A stretch of DNA of 64,000 nt. Origin: Methanobacteriota archaeon (lineage in GTDB: Archaea > Thermoplasmatota > Thermoplasmata > SG8-5 > DAIRED01). Positions 19,667 through 64,000 of this stretch are shown here, piece after piece. The position numbers and the translations under genes are program-made. Within the stretch, counting starts at the first letter, position 1, and each line of letters begins with the position of its first letter. The stretch is taken from positions 1-64,000 of the forward strand of contig JAZDNO010000002.1 in assembly GCA_043799545.1 (NCBI GenBank). The letters are read 5' to 3'. The notes beneath the pieces are model-generated. The model made no database searches. It was not told where the DNA came from and saw only the letters and a program-made list of their open reading frames with translations.

Positions 19667-19721
19667 ATGGGCCCAGTCGGATTCTGACTAGCTGGACGAA
19701 GTCTGAATTTGGGCGCTAGTC
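19667..19721 (-). repeat. Duplicated tRNA-Ile2 3' end (17 bp) capped at the T-loop by a hairpin cassette
   Basis: atgggcccagtcggatt at 19667-19683 identical to 19768-19784; followed by GACTAGC...GCTAGTC (19686-19721). Confidence 0.85.
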
Positions 19722-19768
19722 TTCTCCTCCTGGCCCCATCAACCAAACCTAAAACAATAAAAAATTGA

Positions 19769-19842
19769 TGGGCCCAGTCGGATTTGAACCGACGACCATC
19801 TGGTTATGAGCCAGACGCTCCACCGGGCTAAGCTACGGGCCC
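19769..19842 (-). tRNA. tRNA-Ile2 (CAT anticodon, TiaS substrate)
   Basis: GGGCCCG acceptor, TCTGG-CTCATAA-CCAGA anticodon arm, GTCGG-TTCAAAT-CCGAC T arm; acceptor resembles archaeal Ile rather than Met tRNAs; CCA not encoded. Confidence 0.9.
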
Positions 19843-26394: not shown

Positions 26395-26526
26395 TATATT
26401 ACCGCTCCCTGCATTCTCGCCAACGTTCCAACACTGGTATGATGTACGTAATGCGTTAACATATTAAAAAGGTATCTTGCTTGCCCGCCAGAGTATAAAA
26501 TCCCAGCGAAAGATGCTCTGGCACGG

Positions 26527-26860
26527 TGGGGCCGGGACCTGAACCGAAGCGGTGAAGGTCCAGCCGCATCTGCCCCCGTACAAACTCCCAACAAAAGATG
26601 CGGCGTATATATTTTCCAAGATAGAAGCTAAATAAAAACTGGGACCGGGACCGAGATTCCAGGACGAAACGTCTGTTTCGTCCAGCTCGCGTTTTGCTTC
26701 GCAAAACTCTCGTGAACCCGGGTCAGAAATCCTTTTGAAAGCTGCTCTAGTAAAGAGGGGCCGGGACATGCGAAGCATGTCCAGCCGCATCTGCCCCCAT
26801 ACAAACTCCCAACAAAAGATGCGGCGTATATATTTTCCAAGATAGAAGCTAAATAAAAAC
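26527..26860 (-). repeat. Tandem array of tRNA-His 3'-end copies with hairpin cassettes
   Basis: 101-bp direct repeat 26558-26658 / 26779-26879 (2 mismatches); three extra ggg(g/a)ccgggac tRNA ends at 26527, 26640, 26757. Confidence 0.92.
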
Positions 26861-26938
26861 TGGGGCCGGGACCGAGATTTGAACCCGGGTCAGGGGATCC
26901 ACAGTCCCCAAGGATAACCAAGCTACCCCACCCCGGCC
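26861..26938 (-). tRNA. tRNA-His (GTG), G-1 and CCA encoded
   Basis: GCCGGGG/TCCCGGC acceptor, GGGGA-CTGTGGA-TCCCC anticodon arm, CCGGG-TTCAAAT-CTCGG T arm, C73 then CCA. Confidence 0.96.
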
Positions 26939-29791: not shown

Positions 29792-30666
29792 AGCTCGTCA
29801 CCCCCTTCGTCAACTCCATCTATCGGCAGCTCGACGTCCGAGGACTCGACCTTGGCGGATATCATCTTCTCGACCAGCTTCTCCTTCTCCTTGAGCCGCT
29901 CGCGCTTCTTAGCATCGTCCAGAAGCTTCGCCGCCGTCTGCGGGTCAATACCTATAGGCTTCACTTCCATCGCTCCGCTGATGATCTTCAGCCGCATGGC
30001 CTGCTCCTTCGAGATGCGCATGGACGCCGTCTTGCGCAGCGCATCGAAGGTCGCCAGCCCGTAATTGACCGTCGTCTTGGTGTGCCCGTCCGATATGCTC
30101 CAGGCGTCCTTGATGCCCGCGAGCCTCAGGACGTGCCTCGGAATCTCCGACACCGCCAGCCCGACGCCGCGCGGCGCAGGCTTGAATACGATGTCCACAG
30201 AGCCGCTCTTGCCTATGACCTCGAAAGGCAGAGTGTGGGGCTTACCGCAGCCGCACTCCCACGAGCCGCACCCGCGCTTGATTTCGACTATGCTCAGCTT
30301 GGCGCTGTCGATGGCCTTCCTGATTGCGGGGCCTACTTCCTTTCCGCGAGCCCTTCCGAGCCCGACGAAGCCGTCCGAGTTGCCCACGACCACCGTGATC
30401 GCGAAGCGCACCCTGCGCCCGGAATCCGTCATGCGCTGGACCATGTTCACGTCTATGACTTCGTCCGTCATCTCGGGCAGCAGTATGTCGACTATCTCCG
30501 GCTCCCTTATCCGGAGCCTCGTGGCCAGAGCCTCGCTCATGGTGGAGACCTTTCCTTCAGCCACCAAATCGCCCAGGCTTGTCTTGGGGACCCAGTCGCC
30601 GATGCGCCTGGACCCGCGCTCCTTGTCGCCCCTGTTGTCCCGTCCCCTTCCTCCTCTTGCCGGCAT
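29788..30666 (-). CDS. rps5: 30S ribosomal protein uS5
   Basis: WVPKTSLG, VQRMTDSGRR, RGCGSWEC. Confidence 0.97.
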   Translation of the reverse strand: MPARGGRGRDNRGDKERGSRRIGDWVPKTSLGDLVAEGKVSTMSEALATRLRIREPEIVDILLPEMTDEVIDVNMVQRMTDSGRRVRFAITVVVGNSDGFVGLGRARGKEVGPAIRKAIDSAKLSIVEIKRGCGSWECGCGKPHTLPFEVIGKSGSVDIVFKPAPRGVGLAVSEIPRHVLRLAGIKDAWSISDGHTKTTVNYGLATFDALRKTASMRISKEQAMRLKIISGAMEVKPIGIDPQTAAKLLDDAKKRERLKEKEKLVEKMISAKVESSDVELPIDGVDEGGDEL

Positions 30667-53811: not shown

Positions 53812-53960
53812 CAAATCCCAGCTTCAAATAAAAAACAAGTGGGGGCGCTGGGATTCACGACCGCGCTCCGGCGCGGTCTGGTCGCAAAACTGCGGTTTTG
53901 CTCCTGAACCTCCGGTTCAAATCTCAGCTTCAAATAATAAATAAGTGGGGGCGCTGGGAT
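53812..53960 (-). repeat. Two copies of an orphan tRNA 3' end (ATCCCAGCGCCCCCA), one with a T-loop hairpin insert; putative att site
   Basis: ~43-bp imperfect direct repeat 53812-53854 / 53918-53960; sits exactly where base composition shifts. Confidence 0.8.
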
Positions 53961-53982
53961 ATTCACTTACTCAGTGTAGCCA

Positions 53983-54324
53983 GTGTATGGCGTCTGGTAC
54001 CACCCAAAAGCAGAATTACGCCAGAATTCCCCATTTTTTAACGTGCGAACAGCAGATGCGCACAGGGGGATACCCTTGACGGCTACGATTGATGACTTAG
54101 TAAAAGCACATAATACTTTAGAATCAATGATTAAAACCATGTCATCATGCACTCGACCAGTGCAATGCCATAACTGCCCTAAAAATGAAAGATGTGTTAA
54201 TGACCTGCACGGATTTGCAGTTAATCTTCAACTATCCATGCAAAACTACGCTCGGATGCACGAAATCGAGATTTCTGGCTACGACCTCGAACCGATACGC
54301 CCAAGCGGAGAGCCACCATGCTAG
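53983..54324 (+). CDS. Small hypothetical protein with Cys cluster (true start may be ~54128)
   Basis: SCTRPVQCHNCPKNERC; 3' end overlaps the start of the Rep-like gene. Confidence 0.45.
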   Translation: MYGVWYHPKAELRQNSPFFNVRTADAHRGIPLTATIDDLVKAHNTLESMIKTMSSCTRPVQCHNCPKNERCVNDLHGFAVNLQLSMQNYARMHEIEISGYDLEPIRPSGEPPC

Positions 54325-56255
54325 TCACCATCGAACAAGTAAGAAAAATCATTAGCACCATTCCAATTCAACACCAGGACGACTGGAAATGGATTATCCA
54401 TTTTTGTGCTAAAGCAACCGATGATGAATTGGCTGACATTATCTACGATCTCCCGGTTCAGGATATTCAAGCAATCAATACGCGCATGATCAAAGGTAAG
54501 TATTTCGCCGAATTCGCCACAGTGATGAAGATAACATCGTCCTACGAGCGCAAGATACAGCAATTTCTCACGTTAGCACAGGAAACGCTAGAACATGCCG
54601 ACTTCTCGGGCATGGCCCTTAGAAAGCATATAAGGCGCATTTGCGCCTTGAAGATTCTAGCTATAAAGGATAAGAAAAAGAGGAAAATCCCAAAGGATGA
54701 CCTCATTAACACTGCCTGGGACTTGGAAAAGGCCGTATTATTGATTCCTAAGACTTTTCCCCAATGCCAATGGATTATCAACGGTAACAGAACGCCCGAG
54801 AAGATTAAATTCGCTCTGGGCGAACTCAAAGAGGAACTACAACGCTCCAGGATGCGCTTCTCGACCACCAGGAGAAGGTATTTCAGAAAGGCGATCTCCC
54901 TGAACTACGAAGCCATACTAAAGGAATTCCTGGACACCAAAGGACGTAACCTAAAGCTCCACAAAACACGCATCGACCGCCTGGTGATAGACGTTTACCA
55001 CCCCGAACTGATGACGTTCCATCCGGAGGTAATGTCCATCCTCTCCAGGAACGAAGCCGAGAGGAACGTAGAATTCGCCAAGTCCAGAATCATTCCACAA
55101 TCGAAAATTGACGCTCTGCGCAAAATCGAGGGAGAATTCACCGCAGAGGCCGATATCGATTCGATAACGAAACAATGGGAATCGGACCGCCAAGAACAGC
55201 TGGAAAAAGGCTTCGCCTCGAGGGGAAAGATTATTCAAAAGTATCCTTGGGGGAAAGTCGAATTCACTTACGAACCACACTCAATCGGGGCACCGATACG
55301 CTTACGCTTGATAACCAACGTCCAAAACTGCATTCGCCAGGAGCTATTCGACAGATATCCAGATAAAGAAGCCATGTACAAAGCTTCTAGCTGGGGCGGC
55401 AACAGTGAAATTAACTTCATACTGCCCCAGGACTACGATTACTATTATCAATCGGAACGCCCGAAATGCGACTGGCTTTACAGCAAGGCCAAAGAACTGT
55501 TCATGCAGCTTATCAAAGAAGCCCTGGACATGGCCGTTCAGAACCCAGACAAGCTCATTGTCTATGTATCCCAATTCGAAATATGCTGGGAAGAACCCCT
55601 TGAAAGAACCCACGCACTCAAACCGTTCACGAAACTCGAATATCCAGCACTATCAACCTACCTAAATGACAAAGCCGTAGAAATGAACGGTATTGGCAAC
55701 TACGTCAATTGCAAGATAGAAAACGGCAGACCGTCATTCTATTGCGATATCGCTTCGCTCGATCCTACAACGCCAGTCATGCAATATAAGATTTATCCTA
55801 AATTTCATATTGCTGGCAAGACCTACCTTCGACACGAACTGACGAATACTAAGTTCTCCAAATTAATCGACTCGTCGATAGACAGAGAACAAAGCGGGCT
55901 GAGTTATACGTTACTGAACGATCCAGAATTCGCTCGAAAGACATTCGAGGAAATCTTCTGGCTCGAAACGTATAACCATCGAGGAGACGGTTATAACCGC
56001 AGATACTCCCAGGACACAAGCGACGAAGCTCAACTGAACTTCTTTGCCACTCTCACGGCCAAGGCCGTGTTCAATCAATCCTACCTGTCCAGGACAGGAG
56101 ATATGATTCAACTTATGAGAACTGGCAGATGCCCCAAAACAATCCGGGGCAGGCCAAGGAGAACAATGGAGGAACTAGGTATAATCTCCAAGCAAAATAG
56201 AGGAAACTATCTTGCTACTCAACTATACCTCAAATACGCAAATGGAAACGGGTAG
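54318..56255 (+). CDS. Hypothetical 645-aa protein, candidate Rep_trans-family rolling-circle replication initiator
   Basis: C-terminal half has ordered motifs VSQFEICWE / NGRPSFY / KIYPK / YLRHEL resembling pT181-family Rep; ORF is solid, function is inferred. Confidence 0.5.
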   Translation: MLVTIEQVRKIISTIPIQHQDDWKWIIHFCAKATDDELADIIYDLPVQDIQAINTRMIKGKYFAEFATVMKITSSYERKIQQFLTLAQETLEHADFSGMALRKHIRRICALKILAIKDKKKRKIPKDDLINTAWDLEKAVLLIPKTFPQCQWIINGNRTPEKIKFALGELKEELQRSRMRFSTTRRRYFRKAISLNYEAILKEFLDTKGRNLKLHKTRIDRLVIDVYHPELMTFHPEVMSILSRNEAERNVEFAKSRIIPQSKIDALRKIEGEFTAEADIDSITKQWESDRQEQLEKGFASRGKIIQKYPWGKVEFTYEPHSIGAPIRLRLITNVQNCIRQELFDRYPDKEAMYKASSWGGNSEINFILPQDYDYYYQSERPKCDWLYSKAKELFMQLIKEALDMAVQNPDKLIVYVSQFEICWEEPLERTHALKPFTKLEYPALSTYLNDKAVEMNGIGNYVNCKIENGRPSFYCDIASLDPTTPVMQYKIYPKFHIAGKTYLRHELTNTKFSKLIDSSIDREQSGLSYTLLNDPEFARKTFEEIFWLETYNHRGDGYNRRYSQDTSDEAQLNFFATLTAKAVFNQSYLSRTGDMIQLMRTGRCPKTIRGRPRRTMEELGIISKQNRGNYLATQLYLKYANGNG

Positions 56256-56439
56256 ATACAAACACCATAGACAACCATCGCCAGCCCAGGCTACGCCGTT
56301 GGGCAGCTAAATGGTTTATATGGAAAGGTCTGCTCGACCATAGCAATCAGTTTAAACGCAGGCCATTTCTTCAAAATGGCATACACAATCAGACTTGAAT
56401 CAAGTCCGATTGACAGCTTAACTAGATAACCGTCAGCAC

Positions 56440-57070
56440 TTGACGGCTCGCCGGGCTGCGCCTCGGCTCGCCTCGAGATTAGAGGCGTTCCCGGCCTTTC
56501 GGCACAGTTTGGGGGCTTGCTGAGCAGCCCCACAAATCTTGGGCGCTACGCCCCCAACGCCCTACACCTATGGTGATGGGCTAAGGCCACCTTCCAGGTG
56601 GCTCAAAGGATTTGCTGGGGAACGTCCATATGGCGAAAATGATTTTCTACCTATGGTGGACCGTAATCCCACGTTGGATACCAACAATACAGAAGCACAC
56701 GTCTGAAATAACGTATAATGACGGACTTTCATAAAAGCCCCTCTTTAATGTTCCCGACTACTCTAGTTTGCCAGACAAAAAGCTTACTCATATCTATCAA
56801 TATGAGCCAAGATGCACTTAAATTCAATCATTACACTACGCTGCATTCATTCATAAGAGTTTATCACGGCGAATAAGAGACGATCAAAGTAAGCATTTGT
56901 CAAAGGCTAAGACAGTAATCTAGGAACGTTCAATCGAATAGGCTCTAAAAAGCCCATTCTAACTTATATTCAGACGTTTTAATGCTTCATGAATGGTAAC
57001 CAGGATAAGGATTACGTCCTTATGTGGCCTCTCGGCGGAGCCTTCGGCCATCCACATATGACATGCAATC
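56440..57070. other. Hairpin-rich non-coding region, candidate replication origin of the island
   Basis: Several GC hairpins (GGGGCT..AGCCCC, GCCACCT-TCC-AGGTGGC, TGGCC..GGCCA) directly downstream of the Rep-like gene; no convincing ORF. Confidence 0.35.
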
Positions 57071-57538
57071 GGTGAAAAATCTCCACGGCTACAGCTTAAG
57101 GACAGAAACTCAATCCTAACTATAGCCATCCAGCCGTAGTATTTTTAACTATACAACTGTGGCAATCCTATTTACGCAATTTCAGAACTTATGGCCTTCG
57201 GTACCCTCGGGCCAGATAATCATTTCCGGTTCCGGAAAAGATTTCAATGATGCTCAATGGAACGTATCAGGGAAGGCGATTACCGGAAATGTTATCAGGC
57301 CACGGCCATGCCGACCTTCTCCATTTCAGCCTATGCTCGAAGGTCCCACACTGTCAAAATTTCCTTGCCGTCTTTTCGGTCATTCCAGCACCCCCGATGG
57401 AATCGAGGTGCAGTAATGACACCATTGGTTAGGCCGTCCGGGGCGAATGACCGGAGAAGCGTGATAACATCCGAGCCGGGATGGGAATACTCCCATGCCT
57501 TTAAAATAAGGGAATTCAGCGACCAGGGGGTATTCTGA

Positions 57539-57832
57539 ATGAGTCCTCCCGTCTGGTTCAAGACACTCGACCACCTGGCAAGTGTGCCTGGGAATGGGTA
57601 CACGGACTTGACCGCTCCGAGAGGATGTAACCAGGACGGCATCGCTGCGGCCCTGGGGATAACCAGGGCGCACGTTGCACTGAATCTGAAGAACCTTGTC
57701 AATCGCGAGCTCGTGATGGTGCGTTTGCTACATGTTCCCGGTAAAAACCGGAAGGTCAGGACGTACCAGCTAACGTTTTACGGTTACAAATTCCTCCACG
57801 AGCTTCACACCAGGCGTGGTCAGGAGGTGTGA
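57539..57832 (+). CDS. Stand-alone winged-HTH protein homologous to the N-terminus of the 2197-3423 regulator
   Basis: QDGIAAALGITRAHV...HVPGKNRKVRTYQLTFYG. Confidence 0.8.
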   Translation: MSPPVWFKTLDHLASVPGNGYTDLTAPRGCNQDGIAAALGITRAHVALNLKNLVNRELVMVRLLHVPGKNRKVRTYQLTFYGYKFLHELHTRRGQEV

Positions 57833-57835
57833 GCG

Positions 57836-57997
57836 ATGTGCCGGTACGATAGGGGCTTCAACAAGGGCTTCATGTGGGCGATGCGCCACAGCGCCGAGGA
57901 GGTCGGGAGGTACCTGGCCTCCCGGCGAGCGAGACCGAAAAGGTCGTACTGGAAGGGGTACATGGACGGGGTGAGAGCTACGGAGAGGGAGGGATGA
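57836..57997 (+). CDS. Small hypothetical protein, 53 aa
   Basis: Manual translation MCRYDRGFNKGFMWAMRHSAEEVGRYLASRRARPKRSYWKGYMDGVRATEREG; GGAGGTG SD upstream. Confidence 0.6.
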   Translation: MCRYDRGFNKGFMWAMRHSAEEVGRYLASRRARPKRSYWKGYMDGVRATEREG

Positions 57998-58437
57998 GAT
58001 AATGCTTCTGGCTTATCCGATTAAATTCTTGTCTGGTAGTATGACCATGATACTATTATGTATTGTGATGATTATATGGGATATGATGATAATATGATGC
58101 GAAGGCAAGCTCTGTCAGAGTTACCAATCATAAATATTCGGTTTATAGGAGGGTATTATTAATGGAAAAATGGGAGTCAAAAAGAAAAATATTAATTTTT
58201 TATAGTTATTCCCATCTTGATAAATATGATGTTGGAAAATTAAAAAGTATACTTGAAATGCATGGATTTGCTGGGTTTTTAGCCCATGAAGATATTCAAC
58301 CATCGAGAGTATGGGAACAAGAAATTTGTGAGGCTATTCAATATTCTGATATCTTCATACCCTTTCTCACGAATAACTTTAAAACGTCCACATGGACTGA
58401 TCAAGAATGTGGGATGGCCATGGCTCAAAATAAAAAG

Positions 58438-59136
58438 CTAATGAGTGCTCCCAAGGCTAAAGCCTTGGGTATCCTCATCAGTTAGCTGGAGTAATCGTTC
58501 AGAGACCTTTGAGGAGTCATAATTTCAGGCATCATCTTACTGGGCCATGCCCTTGTCGGCGCATTGTCTGGGTGGTGCTTTTTCTGGGATGATTCGATGT
58601 AATGTTTGATGGTCTCCTCGTTCACTTCGCTGATTGGTCGAAAGAACTTGCCAGCGGACCATAGATGGCACCGGCTGTAGCCATCCAATTCGGGGAAGAC
58701 AAGTCTCAACTCTCTGGAACTGCAGCCCTTCAGATATTGTATCACCTGGCTAATCGCCTGGGAAGGGCGGATATTCAAGAACAAGTGTACGTGGTCTTCC
58801 ATTATTTCGTAAGCCTTGATTTCAAATCCGTGCCTCTCTGCAATCGCAAAGAATATAGCGGCCAATCGCCCTTTAATGTCTGCTCGGGCAAACATCTTAG
58901 AACGTTTGTAGGGCACAAGCACCACATGGTACTGGCAACATCCATAGGCATGGCTGAATGATCTGGCGGGATCCATTTGTGTCATACTCCTGGCGGTTCC
59001 AAGGCGCGCCGCGAAGCGGCGCGCGCCGTCAAAACGCCAGTATCGCGTGTATGGCTAAAAAGATGCCCCGGGTTAGCCGGTGCTTGCTCGCCCTACATCC
59101 CCAACCTAAAGGTTGCGGTATTAGGGCTAGGTCAGC
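58438..59136 (-). mobile_element. IS200/IS605-family element, tnpA only (699 bp)
   Basis: CTAAT at both junctions (58438-42, 59137-41); subterminal hairpins CCCAAGGC-TAAA-GCCTTGGG (58450-69) and CAACC-TAAA-GGTTG (59102-15). Confidence 0.9.
58482..58985 (-). CDS. tnpA: Y1 HUH transposase
   Basis: YHVVLVP, EDHVHLF (HUH), LKGCSS, LWS, HYIESSQ catalytic Tyr. Confidence 0.93.
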   Translation of the reverse strand: MTQMDPARSFSHAYGCCQYHVVLVPYKRSKMFARADIKGRLAAIFFAIAERHGFEIKAYEIMEDHVHLFLNIRPSQAISQVIQYLKGCSSRELRLVFPELDGYSRCHLWSAGKFFRPISEVNEETIKHYIESSQKKHHPDNAPTRAWPSKMMPEIMTPQRSLNDYSS

Positions 59137-59727
59137 CTAATAATGCCACTGGAAGTAGATATATTACCATATGGATTTTTAAATAAGTATCAAAGCTTTA
59201 GATACAATCGTCATTCACCTGAAGTAATGGCTGCTAAAATAATTAAAATCATTATGGGTTCAAATATAAAAGGTATAAAGAGCAATATGATTAACATGTT
59301 CTCGGAAAGTCCCTCATTTGATAAAGCAAAATGTAGGGCTAAAATGCTTAAAAAATTTAATAATTTTACCCGAGACGAAATTAATTATATCATTGAAAGT
59401 AGCATTAAAAATGACCAAATATATAATTCATTTGGTGCGAGGGATGTATTACTTGAATTTTTAAAGACATACGAAGGCCAAATCGTAGAAAAAAATATTG
59501 ATAAACTAAAGGATATTTTTTCAAAAAATCCTATAAGTGGTTAGTAATTTGTAATCACCGTATGCCACTCTGCCATTCCCTTCTGAAGCAATTTCCTTCG
59601 TGCGCTCCGCTGTTTGTATTCAATCGGTTCTGAAAGCCGGAGTTAGGTTATTAATAGGCGAATACCCATCATTGGACCGTGAGCGCGAATAGGAACCGTC
59701 ACTTGGGGGCGAACGGAGGGCGCGAGT

Positions 59728-60102
59728 ATGCCATTATTGTTAGCTAGCCATCGAATGCGAACACTTCTTGAGAACTTATCTGATTCATTACTTTCTAAAT
59801 GTCCAAGTATAGAATGGAACGACTCTGATCAATGGAGAACTTTTAAAACAAAACAAAATGGATTAGTTTTTGTTCGTATCAGACCATACAAAGATTCAAT
59901 TGCCATTTTTCCACATTTACCACTATCATATATGGAACAGATCGAATCTTTTAAGGTGTTTCCGGTGTCTGGCAAAAAATGGGAGAAGAAAAGACCATTT
60001 CGTTTTAATATCGTAAAACAGGAACAGATTCAGGAAACGATTCACATTTTAATGGATGCTAATTACTATACAATCAATGGAACGTTAGAGCACCCACCAT
60101 GA
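59728..60102 (+). CDS. Hypothetical protein (DUF5655-like fold possible)
   Basis: FVRIRPYKDSIAIF...FRFNI..QEQIQE pattern; weak. Confidence 0.5.
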   Translation: MPLLLASHRMRTLLENLSDSLLSKCPSIEWNDSDQWRTFKTKQNGLVFVRIRPYKDSIAIFPHLPLSYMEQIESFKVFPVSGKKWEKKRPFRFNIVKQEQIQETIHILMDANYYTINGTLEHPP

Positions 60103-60356
60103 GCCCCCTCCCCCGTGCATGCCATAGAACGACGAAAGGGGGCGTTGATGATGGTATGTTTAAGTCCGCCGAGGAGGATAGCGGATGCGGAGGCGACAAG
60201 TCATGCAATACTCGGGGTTGGACGTGCACAAGGAGTTTTGCCATGGGACAGTGCTGACGGTTCTGTTGCGTTGTAGAGTTATAGCAACCGCCAAGGATGG
60301 ACTGTTGCATCGCAGTTGCTGACGGATTGCTTCTCCTCACCTGGCCAAGTATAATC

Positions 60357-60629
60357 CTATTTCTCCAACTCTTCGTCCACTTTGCTCAGAAGGGTTGCCA
60401 CGCGCTTGCCTTTGTCGGTCAGGGAGATTAGCCGCCTCCCGCCGAACTTGTCCTCGGTTTTCTCGACAATCAGACCGTCGGCCCTCAGCTCGCCCAGCCT
60501 TGAGCTTATCGTGCTGATGCTGCCGCCCGTGGCTTCGGCTAGCTTGGAGAACGGGATGGCCTTTCCCTCTTGGTGAATGGCGATGAGTACGTCCATCGAT
60601 TTGCTACGTTCCAAATTTCTGAGACTCAT
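60357..60629 (-). CDS. Winged-HTH transcription regulator (ArsR/MarR-like)
   Basis: FSKLAEATGGSISTISSRLGELRADGLI...RRLISLTDKG. Confidence 0.85.
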   Translation of the reverse strand: MSLRNLERSKSMDVLIAIHQEGKAIPFSKLAEATGGSISTISSRLGELRADGLIVEKTEDKFGGRRLISLTDKGKRVATLLSKVDEELEK

Positions 60630-60742
60630 AGAACGGGTATCGACGGGGGCGCAAATATTCCTTGTTTTTACTATTATAGGAAATTAATATATCATTCTTC
60701 TGCCATAACCCTACTTATTGCAGAAACAAGTAGGTGGTCGGA

Positions 60743-60880
60743 ATGGCTGACGAAATGGACGAGATTATCGAGATGGTGGCCCGGTGGGTGAGGCCTAACG
60801 TTGACATGGCAGAGCTGAAGGCATCCCCGTTCTACGGCTCGGTCAAGAATAAGGTCGAGGAACTGATAGGCAGGGAGTAA
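60743..60880 (+). CDS. Small hypothetical protein, 45 aa, divergent from the wHTH regulator
   Basis: Manual translation MADEMDEIIEMVARWVRPNVDMAELKASPFYGSVKNKVEELIGRE; AGGTGG SD-like upstream. Confidence 0.55.
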   Translation: MADEMDEIIEMVARWVRPNVDMAELKASPFYGSVKNKVEELIGRE

Positions 60881-61075
60881 TCTCTGTGCGGTCACGTGGT
60901 GGCATCTTTTTATCTATCCTAGTTGTGCTAGAATTCGTTATCAAGTATCAGACTGTGCTCTCCTCGTCGGTCAACTGCCCTCCTTTTGCTTCCGTTCACA
61001 AATCAGTTTACAAAACAGATTATATACACCCTATCCTATCTCATCATCGCAATACGCTAGGAGAGAGGGGTCGCG

Positions 61076-64000
61076 ATGAGAACATTTACCAAGGCGCTGG
61101 CGACGGTGTGTGTAGGCGTAATGTGCTTGACCGCACTCCAGAACGTTTCTGCCGGAGCTTATGACGAGGGGGAAGACATGGATATTTTCACGGATTCCCT
61201 TGGGAACAGGCATATGGTCTGGAGGGAATTAGTCAACGGGGTTTATCAGGTATTCTATAGCCTAGAGATTGTCGATGATGAATACACGACAAACTATCAG
61301 TCTTATATGACACAGACCATTAACCAGAACTTAAATTTCGACGACGGGTACCTTACCATCCAGAATTGCCAAATTAATGGAAATTTAAAATTAACTCGCG
61401 CACAGGTCTCAATCATCAATTGTACGATAAATGGAAATGTTAAAATCGATATGGGAACGATGATAATCCGTTCAACTTCGTTACATGGAAACCTGGATAT
61501 TAAAAATGCGAATTTAGAATTACGGGTTAACGAAATCAATGGGAACGTTAAATCTCAGACAAATACGGATTTGTTTTTCCAAACTGTTATCACAGGCAAT
61601 GAGATTGATGGAAATCTAGATTTAAAGAGTGGTATCTGCTACGTGGTTGGTAACTCAGTAAATGGGAATCTCGATATCAAGTCTCCGGCCACAATTCAGT
61701 CGGTGAGTGATAACGATGTGAATGGAATGATCAAATTAACAAGCGATACAAGTGGTTTTAATGGAATCCAGATAACCAATTTAACGACCAATGCAGCATA
61801 TCCGCAATGTGCAATGGACCCAACAACTGGATTATTCTACATAATATGGGTCACGAATGAAGGTGGGTACAGGGCATGGTATAGCGGTAGTGACGATGTG
61901 GTCGAATGGAGCCTTCCTTATGTTACCGACGTTGTTATCAATACGTGTGACAATCCGCAGATGGATTTTATAGCGTATGGTGGAACCCTGAGCATCTCAT
62001 GGTTGCAGTATGGCAATGCTCAAATTGTTGCTGACTTGGACTTTGATATGATTCCAGACATTAGTGACGTTAATCCATTAACATATGATTCTCAAATCGG
62101 TATTGGAACGTTTAGCCCGGATGTTATCATGGCGGATGGTACGATGGGAATCAGTGTCGCTATTGATTACGCGACGAATTTGACTATCAAACCGACACTC
62201 GCCATAGCCTCGTGTCCGATTCTAAATGCTAATTATGGGCCTTATTTTAGCGTTACAATAGGGTCATCAGATAATTTCACCGCCATCATTAAAATGAAGT
62301 TTGACCCGAATGCACTCTCCACTGACACAATCAAATACCTGCGTATGTACTGGCTTAGGGACGATACGAATTGGAAAATATTAAAAAATGTTTCCGCTGG
62401 GGAGGATACAGGGGTTGATTTGGACAATGGATATGTTTGGGCAGTTACTGCTCATTTCAGTACATTCACAACCGCGGATTCTTCAATGGTGGATTCTGAT
62501 TCTGATGGACTTACCGATGCCCAGGAGATAAATGCTGATGGAAGCTTACCTATTGTTATCGATAAATTTTCAGACGATTCAGCGGAAAGAAGTTTGATAT
62601 TCAGCGGTTCAGACAGCCAAACTGTATGGTTGAAAGTTCCTATTAGCCAGATTGACATACTTCGCGCATCATCAACCCAGATGGATGTTACAAGTAAATT
62701 ATTCCAAATGTCAGTTCAGCAGATGTTATACAATGATGATGCTGCAGTTTATCAGTTAAGTCCCCAGATATATGAGGATAAGGTGATTTGGTGCGACAAT
62801 CGATACGATACAGTTTCAGGAAAATGCGCAGTATTTTTGAAAACAATTGGAACACCTGATGAAATACAATTATCTTCGATTAATGAAAATTCTGGAAACG
62901 CGAAAATATCGGGTAATTATGTAGTGTGGTCTACATATAGCTCAACAAGCAATAAGATTAGCGTTTATAATATTGAACGGAATGAGATAATCCAAAGTTT
63001 TGGGGTAAGTGCCGGTGATTTGGATATTTATGGTGATATAATGGTGTGGAGCGAAATGAGCGTTTACGGACCAGACTATCTATATACCTACAAAATCAGC
63101 ACACAAGAACTTCAACAAATTACTACAACGGATTGTGGAGCCACTCATATATATGGCGATTATATAGCATATCATGATCATACGCAGGGTGGATTGTGGC
63201 TATATCAGCTATCGACTCAACAATATACGAGAATCACGACTGCGGGTGTGAATCCCTGGATGCTCGATATTGATGACCGATATGTTGCATATTTAGATAT
63301 AACTTCAAATGATATATATGCCTATGTCCTAGCTACGGGTGATACGATTCGATTGACCAATACATTTTCGTATGAAAGCAATCCCTCAGTCGACGGTGGA
63401 ATTGTTCTCTGGACTGATTATAGAAATGGCGATCCGGACATATATGGTTTTGACATTCTAAAAAATTTTGAGATTCCAATATGTGTTGCATCAGGTAATC
63501 AGGGAGCTGCATCAAAATATGGAGATAATATCGTATGGCAAGACCAGCGAAATAGTCCACTTCCAAGAATATATAGGGGAACAATCGGAACTCCATCTAT
63601 TTCTATTGCTATTGGAGATAGAAACTTAGATAATATTGTGATGGACGGGACGAATTCAGAGTTCCCAGATTTTTCTGTGCCATTAAATTATTATCTTTCG
63701 ACACATAGTGATAGTGATGATGGGGTATCAGACAACTTTATCTCCGTGCCGCTGGCATTCTCAACAACAGCTGTGGGGGAATTGACATTTTCAAACCTGG
63801 AAATCAATATTTATCCTGCCCTTACAGATCCAGTGAATTGGGATACGGACGGCGAGGGTCTTTCCGATGGTGATGAAGTATTGATGTATTTTACGGATCC
63901 ATGCGACATTGATACAGACGACGATAAATTGTCTGACTATGATGAACTCATGGGAATCTATCATGGGTATATCAGCGACCCAAATAATCCTGACACAGAT
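61076..64000 (+). CDS. Large secreted protein (>975 aa, runs off right edge): beta-solenoid, beta-propeller, Ca-binding DxDxDG repeats
   Basis: Manual translation, open to the edge: signal peptide MRTFTKALATVCVGV; xNGNxxI repeats; VVW/IVW propeller blades; DSDSDGLTDAQE, DTDGEGLSDGDE, DTDDDKLSDYDE. Confidence 0.85.
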   Translation, partial: MRTFTKALATVCVGVMCLTALQNVSAGAYDEGEDMDIFTDSLGNRHMVWRELVNGVYQVFYSLEIVDDEYTTNYQSYMTQTINQNLNFDDGYLTIQNCQINGNLKLTRAQVSIINCTINGNVKIDMGTMIIRSTSLHGNLDIKNANLELRVNEINGNVKSQTNTDLFFQTVITGNEIDGNLDLKSGICYVVGNSVNGNLDIKSPATIQSVSDNDVNGMIKLTSDTSGFNGIQITNLTTNAAYPQCAMDPTTGLFYIIWVTNEGGYRAWYSGSDDVVEWSLPYVTDVVINTCDNPQMDFIAYGGTLSISWLQYGNAQIVADLDFDMIPDISDVNPLTYDSQIGIGTFSPDVIMADGTMGISVAIDYATNLTIKPTLAIASCPILNANYGPYFSVTIGSSDNFTAIIKMKFDPNALSTDTIKYLRMYWLRDDTNWKILKNVSAGEDTGVDLDNGYVWAVTAHFSTFTTADSSMVDSDSDGLTDAQEINADGSLPIVIDKFSDDSAERSLIFSGSDSQTVWLKVPISQIDILRASSTQMDVTSKLFQMSVQQMLYNDDAAVYQLSPQIYEDKVIWCDNRYDTVSGKCAVFLKTIGTPDEIQLSSINENSGNAKISGNYVVWSTYSSTSNKISVYNIERNEIIQSFGVSAGDLDIYGDIMVWSEMSVYGPDYLYTYKISTQELQQITTTDCGATHIYGDYIAYHDHTQGGLWLYQLSTQQYTRITTAGVNPWMLDIDDRYVAYLDITSNDIYAYVLATGDTIRLTNTFSYESNPSVDGGIVLWTDYRNGDPDIYGFDILKNFEIPICVASGNQGAASKYGDNIVWQDQRNSPLPRIYRGTIGTPSISIAIGDRNLDNIVMDGTNSEFPDFSVPLNYYLSTHSDSDDGVSDNFISVPLAFSTTAVGELTFSNLEINIYPALTDPVNWDTDGEGLSDGDEVLMYFTDPCDIDTDDDKLSDYDELMGIYHGYISDPNNPDTD

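Follow-up and report, generated by a model that had tools for sequence, protein, structure and literature searches.

Gene-less hairpin cassettes behind tRNA genes of Thermoplasmata: a structure-conserved family and a candidate for a tiny mobile element

Several described systems come close to the short, hairpin-bearing units that lie behind tRNA genes in the archaeal genome analyzed here. IS200/IS605 insertion sequences and the gene-less PATEs insert without target duplication, as does the cassette core described below (filled in relative G015 and empty in relatives G003 and G006; contiguous flanks at tRNA-His). They also have one hairpin near each end and a strand-specific fold, both seen here, and gene-less copies would need a transposase in trans (Y1 transposase genes are present in the source genome, one of them inside an island at tRNA-Trp). 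Unlike these elements, the core is ~50 nt, roughly half of the known minimal ends, its two hairpins are dissimilar and their sequences unconserved between copies, no constant target tetranucleotide was seen outside tRNA contexts, and no Y1 gene was found in 11 of the 36 cassette-bearing genomes. The attL/attR sites of tyrosine integrases, and CIMEs, share with the cassettes a direct repeat of the tRNA 3' part, from T-loop to end (at tRNA-His, at the Trp island, and at tRNA-Leu where cassettes were compared with empty sites), inserted DNA that rebuilds the tRNA end and supplies a T-run of its own, tandem accumulation at a single tRNA, and a repeat extent as in the real tRNA-Trp and tRNA-Glu islands. 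They differ in that the cassette units are of ~100 nt and gene-less, with a shared folded core and an inverted target copy, and in that a bare core can insert without any repeat. An integrase within the inserted DNA, by the att site, holds only for the 20.6-kb Trp island and not for the modules at tRNA-His and tRNA-CAT.

Integron attC sites and the Xer-exploiting CTX-phi attP(+) keep their structure while the sequence varies, fold on one specific strand, pair two inverted target-like arms into a duplex that resembles the target, and form arrays that grow by repeated insertion at one site. The cassettes parallel them in each of these respects, but their target is the tRNA T-arm rather than attI or dif, they carry no cargo, and nothing in attC or attP(+) corresponds to their pair of conserved internal hairpins with G.A junctions. 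Archaeal bulge-helix-bulge introns can share the T-loop location, and a true example occurs in the same order (G003 tRNA-Leu, nt 59/60) and acts as a positive control; the core, in contrast, is without the motif geometry and is mostly found outside functional tRNA genes. Insertion with long target duplication reportedly occurs with bacterial restriction-modification genes. Here too a short insert is bracketed by 60-110 nt direct repeats of local sequence (the His units; a filled site in G004 compared with an empty one in G011), but the known cases are not ~100-nt hairpin modules tied to tRNA ends.

The window is a 64,000-nt stretch of one contig of the source assembly (G000), a 2.06-Mb metagenome assembly of 31 contigs with 40 tRNAs. 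Contigs of G000 are labelled C##, relatives G001, G002 etc., and loci in relatives L###; window features are on the minus strand unless stated otherwise. An intact tRNA-His(GTG) lies at 26861-26937, with G-1 at 26938 and CCA encoded (ARAGORN; 46.6 bits with the Rfam tRNA model). Three additional tRNA-His 3' ends were found downstream: nt 65-75, 94 nt past the tRNA end; nt 58-76 at 26640-26658, with one mismatch; and nt 64-76 at about 26527-26539. The original prediction had claimed a 101-bp duplication with three extra tRNA ends; the duplication and the three ends were confirmed, but the direct repeat (family D1) measures 110 nt at 95% identity, with a proximal copy at 26770-26879, a distal copy at 26549-26658 and a start-to-start spacing of 221 nt. 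The proximal copy consists of tRNA-His nt 58-76 and 91 nt of flank (T-run, ATATAC and stem 1 of a module termed module B). Beyond the 110 nt another 44 nt match at 75%, for a total of ~1.7 copies of a 221-nt unit.

Each His unit contains, in order, a T-run, a conserved ATATAC, stem 1, and a hairpin with a GGCTGG/CCGGCC base followed by CC(A). Module B1 (26755-26831) folds into stem 1 (GCCGCATC/GATGCGGC), GGCTGG, the hairpin ACATGC-TTC-GCATGT and CCCGGCCCC; module B2 (26526-26610) folds in the same frame with another hairpin interior, including a CTTCGG loop, and ends in GGTCCCGGCCCCA. The base of the hairpin imitates the tRNA-His acceptor stem on both strands, down to the G-1:C73 pair. The two-hairpin layout was also present behind tRNA-His in G001, G005, G004 and G007 with different stem sequences, G011 had an empty site there with no module B, and a C-to-T change in the tRNA-His acceptor strand between G004 and G007 was mirrored on both module B strands. 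The two GGAC-capped tRNA ends, earlier grouped with the cassette described next, belong to a separate, older module that mimics the acceptor stem. Unit 1 and the beginning of unit 2 are common to G000 and G001, so the duplication predates the split of these two genomes. The inserted DNA at the His and tRNA-CAT modules is ~85-220 nt and holds no gene remnant, although a few mechanical ORFs (≤108 aa) cross the region. The His locus is best read as a short series of hairpin-forming modules, devoid of genes, that accumulated in tandem at the 3' end of tRNA-His.

In the distal copy of the tRNA end the break falls precisely at T-loop nt 57/58, as had been predicted: CTGACCCGGGTTCA (26713-26726) and AATCTCGGTCCCGGTCCCA (26640-26658), adjacent in tRNA-His, are here 54 nt apart, with zero bases duplicated. 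Aligned with 12 other cassettes, the 54-nt core insert (26659-26712) reads CGAGA, hp1 (26691-26707), GCGAGCT, hp2 (26662-26683), TGG, and folding reproduced both of the proposed hairpins, GTTTTGC-GAA-GCAAAAC and GGACGAAAC-AGAC-GTTTCGTCC (z = -2.5). The displaced nt 58-76 copy forms the sense arm of a cassette with a degenerate head (26637-26741; GGATTT, tRNA-like nt 44-57, the core, tRNA nt 58-76), which scored 55 bits (E = 1e-15) with the covariance model R1, its own sequence being in the training set. The His insert is a weak member of a conserved cassette family.

A stronger member lies behind a copy of the tRNA-Trp end. The Trp cassette (53834-53933) is composed of the head GAGATTTGAACC-GGA-GGTTCA, a 49-nt core (53856-53904) and a copy of tRNA-Trp nt 58-73 (53839-53855), and scored 87.7 bits with R1 (E = 9e-27). 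The break seen at tRNA-His had also been placed at 53855 and at 19683; copies that start at A58, each after a GAC..GTC hairpin, do exist there (53839-53855 and 19668-19683), but these are not three cases of one event type. His and Trp are homologous cassettes in which the split T-loop is built in, whereas the module behind tRNA-CAT (19769-19842) is simpler. It spans 19668-19745 (fold z = -3.0) and has an antisense arm GGGGCCAGGAGGA, a hairpin GACTAGC..GCTAGTC and a sense arm equal to tRNA nt 58-73 (the exact 16-nt copy at 19668-19683), with no two-hairpin core. The interiors of the His and Trp modules had no sequence relatives elsewhere in G000, and the exact 40-nt 3' sequence of tRNA-His had zero matches in metagenome contigs.

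Copies of tRNA ends were then counted across G000. An inverted copy of the tRNA's own 3' region was found for 21 of the 40 tRNAs, starting 17-37 nt past the gene end in 19 and farther out in two. Direct 3'-end copies numbered 27, behind 19 tRNAs, and started at nt 60 (n = 8), 58 (n = 5), 59 (n = 4), 57 (n = 1), 52/53 (n = 4) or elsewhere (n = 5). Starts within nt 57-60 account for 18 of the 27, two thirds, with others at 52/53 and 62-65, so that the break falls mostly at nt 57-60 and not at the single fixed position originally proposed. Together with the model E values of 1e-15 and 9e-27, these 27 direct copies argue that the window cassettes are not chance resemblances. Many G000 tRNAs also have upstream copies of nt 1-10 up to nt 1-24, each with a promoter and a hairpin, and the copy number of module arrays differs between G000 and G001. 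Upstream of tRNA-Glu(UUC), for instance, G000 has one unit of promoter, tRNA nt 1-10 and GACG..CGTC hairpin (C10:218780-218938), and G001 has three (L049) with differing hairpin interiors.

The inserts at tRNA-His, tRNA-Trp and tRNA-Ser(GCT), the three cassettes of G000, share the frame GGGATTTGwACC-GrA-GGTTCA | CGAG-hp1-GCGAGC-hp2-NNG | AAYCC, followed by the tRNA end; the order is thus antisense arm, TTCA|CGAG-hp1-GCGAGC-hp2-G|AAYCC, tRNA nt 58-73. The head motif was present in 11 of 22 genomes of the order. Model R1, built from an alignment of 13 cassettes, matched 36 of the 151 sampled Thermoplasmata genomes, including 14 of 17 in one other family and nil in several large families. The 22 matches outside the training set whose flanks were inspected were all next to or within tRNA sequence: one was inside a tRNA gene, and the others directly followed a tRNA gene or tRNA 3' end; their arms correspond to the local tRNA, and ten tRNA identities were called beside them (eleven counting Tyr). 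Cassettes always have the orientation of the tRNA; they end with the discriminator, and a T-run comes next. Among species-representative genomes, an exact-motif scan returned 14 Thermoplasmata records (including an Aciduliprofundum MAG, a Methanomassiliicoccales MAG and Candidatus Proteinoplasmatales SG8-5) and five bacterial records that resemble chance matches. The same motif gave 14 matches in metagenome contigs (5 true cassettes behind tRNAs, the remainder apparently chance) and no match in viral contigs.

A match to an already described family had been named beforehand as counter-evidence. In a search of Rfam 15, small ribozymes included, only tRNAs exceeded the gathering threshold and nothing relevant appeared up to E = 10; no description of such modules was met in a limited full-text literature search. 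The gene-less cassette family found behind many Thermoplasmata tRNA genes is apparently undescribed. A hammerhead or other small ribozyme was rejected, as there was no Rfam match at E = 10 and the junction sequences misfit the hammerhead core by eye.

Base pairing was compared between aligned cassettes and randomized controls. For the 13 aligned cassettes, 89% of cells were paired, vs. 76% for shuffled and ~37% for slid partners. For 37 distinct copies the values were 89.6%, 68.9% and 32-55%, with the reservation that this alignment was fitted to the model, which favours pairing (the margin is large). Of the 29 pairs, 24 showed compensatory changes among the 37 copies; hp1 and hp2 contribute 15 pairs, and every one of these did so. 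The stems covary, the linkers are conserved, and tandem G.A motifs are seen at the junctions (CGAG/CGAG, with UGAG..CGAA at the hp2 apex). G.U pairs exceeded A.C pairs overall (46 vs. 12) and in hp2 (24 vs. 2), which indicates that the fold forms on one strand, of tRNA polarity. Selection on structure rather than sequence, proposed at the outset from stems alike in geometry only, is supported by these compensatory changes, and the model, its matches in 36 of 151 genomes and the covarying pairs bear out a gene-less, structure-conserved family tied to the T-loop.

Filled and empty sites were compared in relatives. At tRNA-Leu(UAA) the cassette was absent from G006, G018 and G015, of the same genus. 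In G008 two units of 98 nt are bordered by nt 58-73 and nothing else, and the ancestral flank resumes after the last copy; these sites differ by gain or loss of whole units. A bare core was found in G015, where a tRNA with long variable arm and anticodon GAA (L120:1403-1489) contains a 49-nt core exactly at nt 57/58, with no target duplication and no spare tRNA end. G003 (L170) and G006 (L172) have the same tRNA with an intact T-loop, and the G015 gene is the only copy of that tRNA found in an assembly that is 79% complete. G008 contains a core 93% identical to this one in an unrelated context, and cores also occur within loops of non-tRNA palindromes. The bases 5' of the core are TTCA in all tRNA contexts and TGTA, GCTG or TTGC elsewhere, so a single target motif is doubtful. 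Taken together, the G015 insertion, the near-identical G008 core and the palindrome-loop cores mark the core as a discrete inserted unit for which the T-loop is favoured but not exclusive. The proposed T-loop targeting accordingly stands for the bare core in a genuine tRNA, at a site empty in two relatives, but does not extend to the cores in non-tRNA hairpin loops. At five loci in G008 and G015 (L173-L175, L179, L181) the two-hairpin core lies inside CCCCGGG/CCCGGGG palindromes, beside CCCCGCC..GGGCGGGG hairpins; the palindrome-borne cores may represent a second repeat family that uses the core.

The copy at 53855, first described as an orphan tRNA copy, is the tRNA-Trp end together with one cassette, separated from its gene by a 20.6-kb integrase island. 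The tRNA-Trp gene itself (C12:74519-74695, minus) lies 20.7 kb away on the same strand. Between the two is an integrated low-GC island, the window part of which is 53961-64000 (no strand assigned) and which continues to C12:74518. GC content drops exactly at 53,960, from 58% to 38-46%. The distal att repeat (53943-53960) is ATCCCAGCGCCCCCACTT, tRNA-Trp nt 59-73 plus CTT, and this 18-nt direct repeat, beginning at nt 59, brackets the island. A tyrosine integrase gene (C12:73575-74495; Pfam PF00589, E = 3.8e-12) ends 24 nt from tRNA-Trp. In G001, G002 and G005 orthologous Trp cassettes lie directly behind tRNA-Trp, from which it follows that the island entered between tRNA-Trp and the cassette. 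Besides the integrase, the island encodes a caspase-domain protein, a winged-helix regulator and a 3591-aa ORF (C12:61076-71851), and an IS200-like Y1 transposase lies at 58482-58985 of the window (minus, E = 2.6e-30).

A second island is associated with tRNA-Glu(UUC), its flanking repeat beginning at nt 60. An integrase lies beside this tRNA (C10:218939-219668) and a tRNA-end copy from nt 60 at C22:685-715; this matching copy near the start of another contig implies that the island spans a contig break. As the island repeats begin at nt 59 (Trp) and nt 60 (Glu), integrase att cores and module repeats use the same tRNA segment. Three of the four tyrosine recombinase genes in G000 adjoin tRNA genes. 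The Y1 transposase family, with three matches in G000, was detected in 25 of 36 cassette-bearing genomes vs. 29 of 115 others, counts that come from related genomes and not from independent samples; it was also present in 9 of 12 genomes of one family, all without cassette. The association of Y1 genes with cassettes is positive but leaky and does not decide the enzyme question. At C25:29915-30582 of G000, a small IS200-like Y1 gene at 29915-30367 sits immediately upstream of a stretch similar to tRNA-Leu nt 6-58, which is followed by a promoter and an intact tRNA-Leu(GAG). A Y1 gene ~200 nt upstream of a tRNA in G001, in the same orientation, looks like this C25 arrangement.

The reading we prefer, at even confidence, is that the cassettes derive from a very small mobile DNA element that is non-autonomous and moves by way of a folded single strand. 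A ~50-nt core (CGAG-hp1-GCGAGC-hp2-NNG) would be pasted into a hairpin loop with no target duplication, its preferred target being the T-loop TTCA|AAYC, whether of a tRNA gene itself or of a tRNA 3' end copied as a fold-back. Insertions in essential tRNAs would be lost, and the survivors would be insertions in spare tRNA-end copies, as at tRNA-His, and composite cassettes. A composite cassette would consist of an antisense arm, the core, and a sense arm of tRNA nt 58-73 with its own T-run, and would enter or leave tRNA 3' ends as a whole unit bracketed by the nt 58-73 direct repeat, the same segment that the tRNA-targeting tyrosine integrases of G000 take as att core. Movement via the folded single strand is what we infer from these features, and candidates for the mobilizing enzyme, supplied in trans, are a Y1/HUH transposase and a tyrosine integrase. 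Several observations speak against this reading. Besides the leaky Y1 association, the varying bases 5' of the core outside tRNA contexts and the absence of matches from the viral contigs scanned, the three G000 copies are diverged, so that recent transposition in this genome is not supported, and the His repeat runs 91 nt past the tRNA, for which neither simple cut-and-paste nor an att core accounts.

Perfect pairing of the Trp cassettes was kept at the orthologous site across two families, which would fit host-level RNA selection as well as element turnover. The cassette might then be a host structured RNA that is produced together with the tRNA or shortly afterwards and whose copies arise by local duplication only, a reading that we regard as the main rival, possible though doubtful. 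Its action would depend on a three- or four-way junction and on a 3' tail that matches the tRNA acceptor strand exactly. It might serve as a protein-binding handle (L7Ae, for example, could bind the tandem G.A motifs), in processing or termination, or as a decoy. Conserved linkers with covarying stems and tandem G.A junctions are as expected of such an RNA, as are the G.U excess on the tRNA-sense strand, the constant orientation with discriminator and T-run at the end, the survival of Trp pairing through many changes, and the way module B follows the acceptor-stem change between G004 and G007. However, presence is patchy even within one genus at one tRNA, the G015 copy sits inside a tRNA T-loop without a splicing motif and should damage that tRNA, near-identical cores occur in unrelated contexts, the T-run between tRNA and cassette should halt transcription, and no Rfam family matched.

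A bolder form of the mobile-element reading, which we consider unlikely, takes the ~50-nt core as a new, smallest known mobile unit whose insertion sites are hairpin loops in single-stranded nucleic acid, tRNA T-loops being the natural target and the antisense arm a base-pairing guide that chooses the tRNA; or else T-loops would lose the core at the RNA level, through splicing independent of the bulge-helix-bulge motif.

The integrase islands suggest instead that the modules could be inert scars, stacked att leftovers of tRNA-targeting integrative elements with deleted interiors. Three of the four G000 tyrosine recombinase genes are beside tRNA genes, the Trp and Glu repeats begin at nt 59 and 60 as in the modules, and the first Trp-end copy (53943-53960) is exactly such an att site. 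In scars, however, one would not find a conserved core, common to several orders, in which 24 of 29 pairs covary, nor would scars lie in non-tRNA hairpins or, repeat-free, inside a T-loop; module interiors are moreover without gene remnants. We regard the scar reading as improbable, and it is the covariation that disfavours it.

That T-loop introns exist in archaea, an earlier premise, is borne out within the same order. In G003, tRNA-Leu(UAA) (L151:1541-1693) contains, besides the usual anticodon intron, an insert of 44 nt at T-loop nt 59/60 that folds into a perfect bulge-helix-bulge (T-stem, ACU bulge, UUCA:UGAA helix, AAC bulge, 8-bp helix); by its predicted fold this insert is a true intron. 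Non-canonical T-loop introns are unusual outside Thermoproteales. This example, and the core within a full tRNA gene in G015, would favour the 54-nt His insert being a present or former splicing-endonuclease intron, with the split copy part of a split or alternative tRNA-His. Such an origin is nonetheless rejected as very improbable: the His copy begins at about nt 38-44 and is without acceptor 5' strand, D arm and anticodon; its fold has a 4x2 internal loop and two separate hairpins in place of the 3-nt/4-bp/3-nt motif, for which a check of the insert ends had been proposed; the G015 junctions cannot form a bulge-helix-bulge (by hand); and a T-run separates tRNA from cassette.

G000 is a metagenome assembly in 31 contigs, and contigs often break at repeats near tRNAs. 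An assembly artefact is nevertheless hardly credible as the source of the tandem duplication: the two His units are 5% different with different hairpins, unit 1 and the first part of unit 2 recur in G001, and independent assemblies commonly show tandem units as well. Reverse-transcribed mature tRNA, with synthesis stopping at modified A58, was rejected because copies are without CCA wherever the gene is without CCA (e.g., tRNA-CAT, tRNA-Leu), and a MITE because the core has no terminal inverted repeats and no target duplication.

If the mobile-element reading holds, an element of only ~50-100 nt, devoid of genes and resident at tRNA gene ends, is widespread in Thermoplasmata and would be among the smallest mobile units known. 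It would show the tolerance of tRNA genes to invasion, with the invader restoring or sparing the gene end, and would account for tRNA flanks that break many metagenome assemblies and for odd fragments reported by tRNA finders in Thermoplasmata. The element would further offer a simple test system, requiring oligonucleotides and a single small transposase or integrase, to study how a universally conserved sequence is targeted by what may be a new mechanism. Should the cassette be a functional RNA, it would constitute a new conserved RNA family attached to many different tRNAs in several orders. For annotation, R1 is a direct handle.

Split genes with long introns called by ARAGORN in G000 were rejected as false positives inside coding DNA. 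A tRNA gene at C30:75686-75800 has an extra GC-rich segment in the D-loop region and was fused by ARAGORN with coding DNA into a false 606-nt gene. In the family termed f3, a different module type lies behind tRNA-His (L079, L075, L076, L080): the T-run pairs with a downstream A-run in an 18-bp palindrome, which is followed by a GGACGAG..CTCGTCC hairpin and then a GCCGGCAAAC..GTTTGCCGG hairpin, often twice in tandem.
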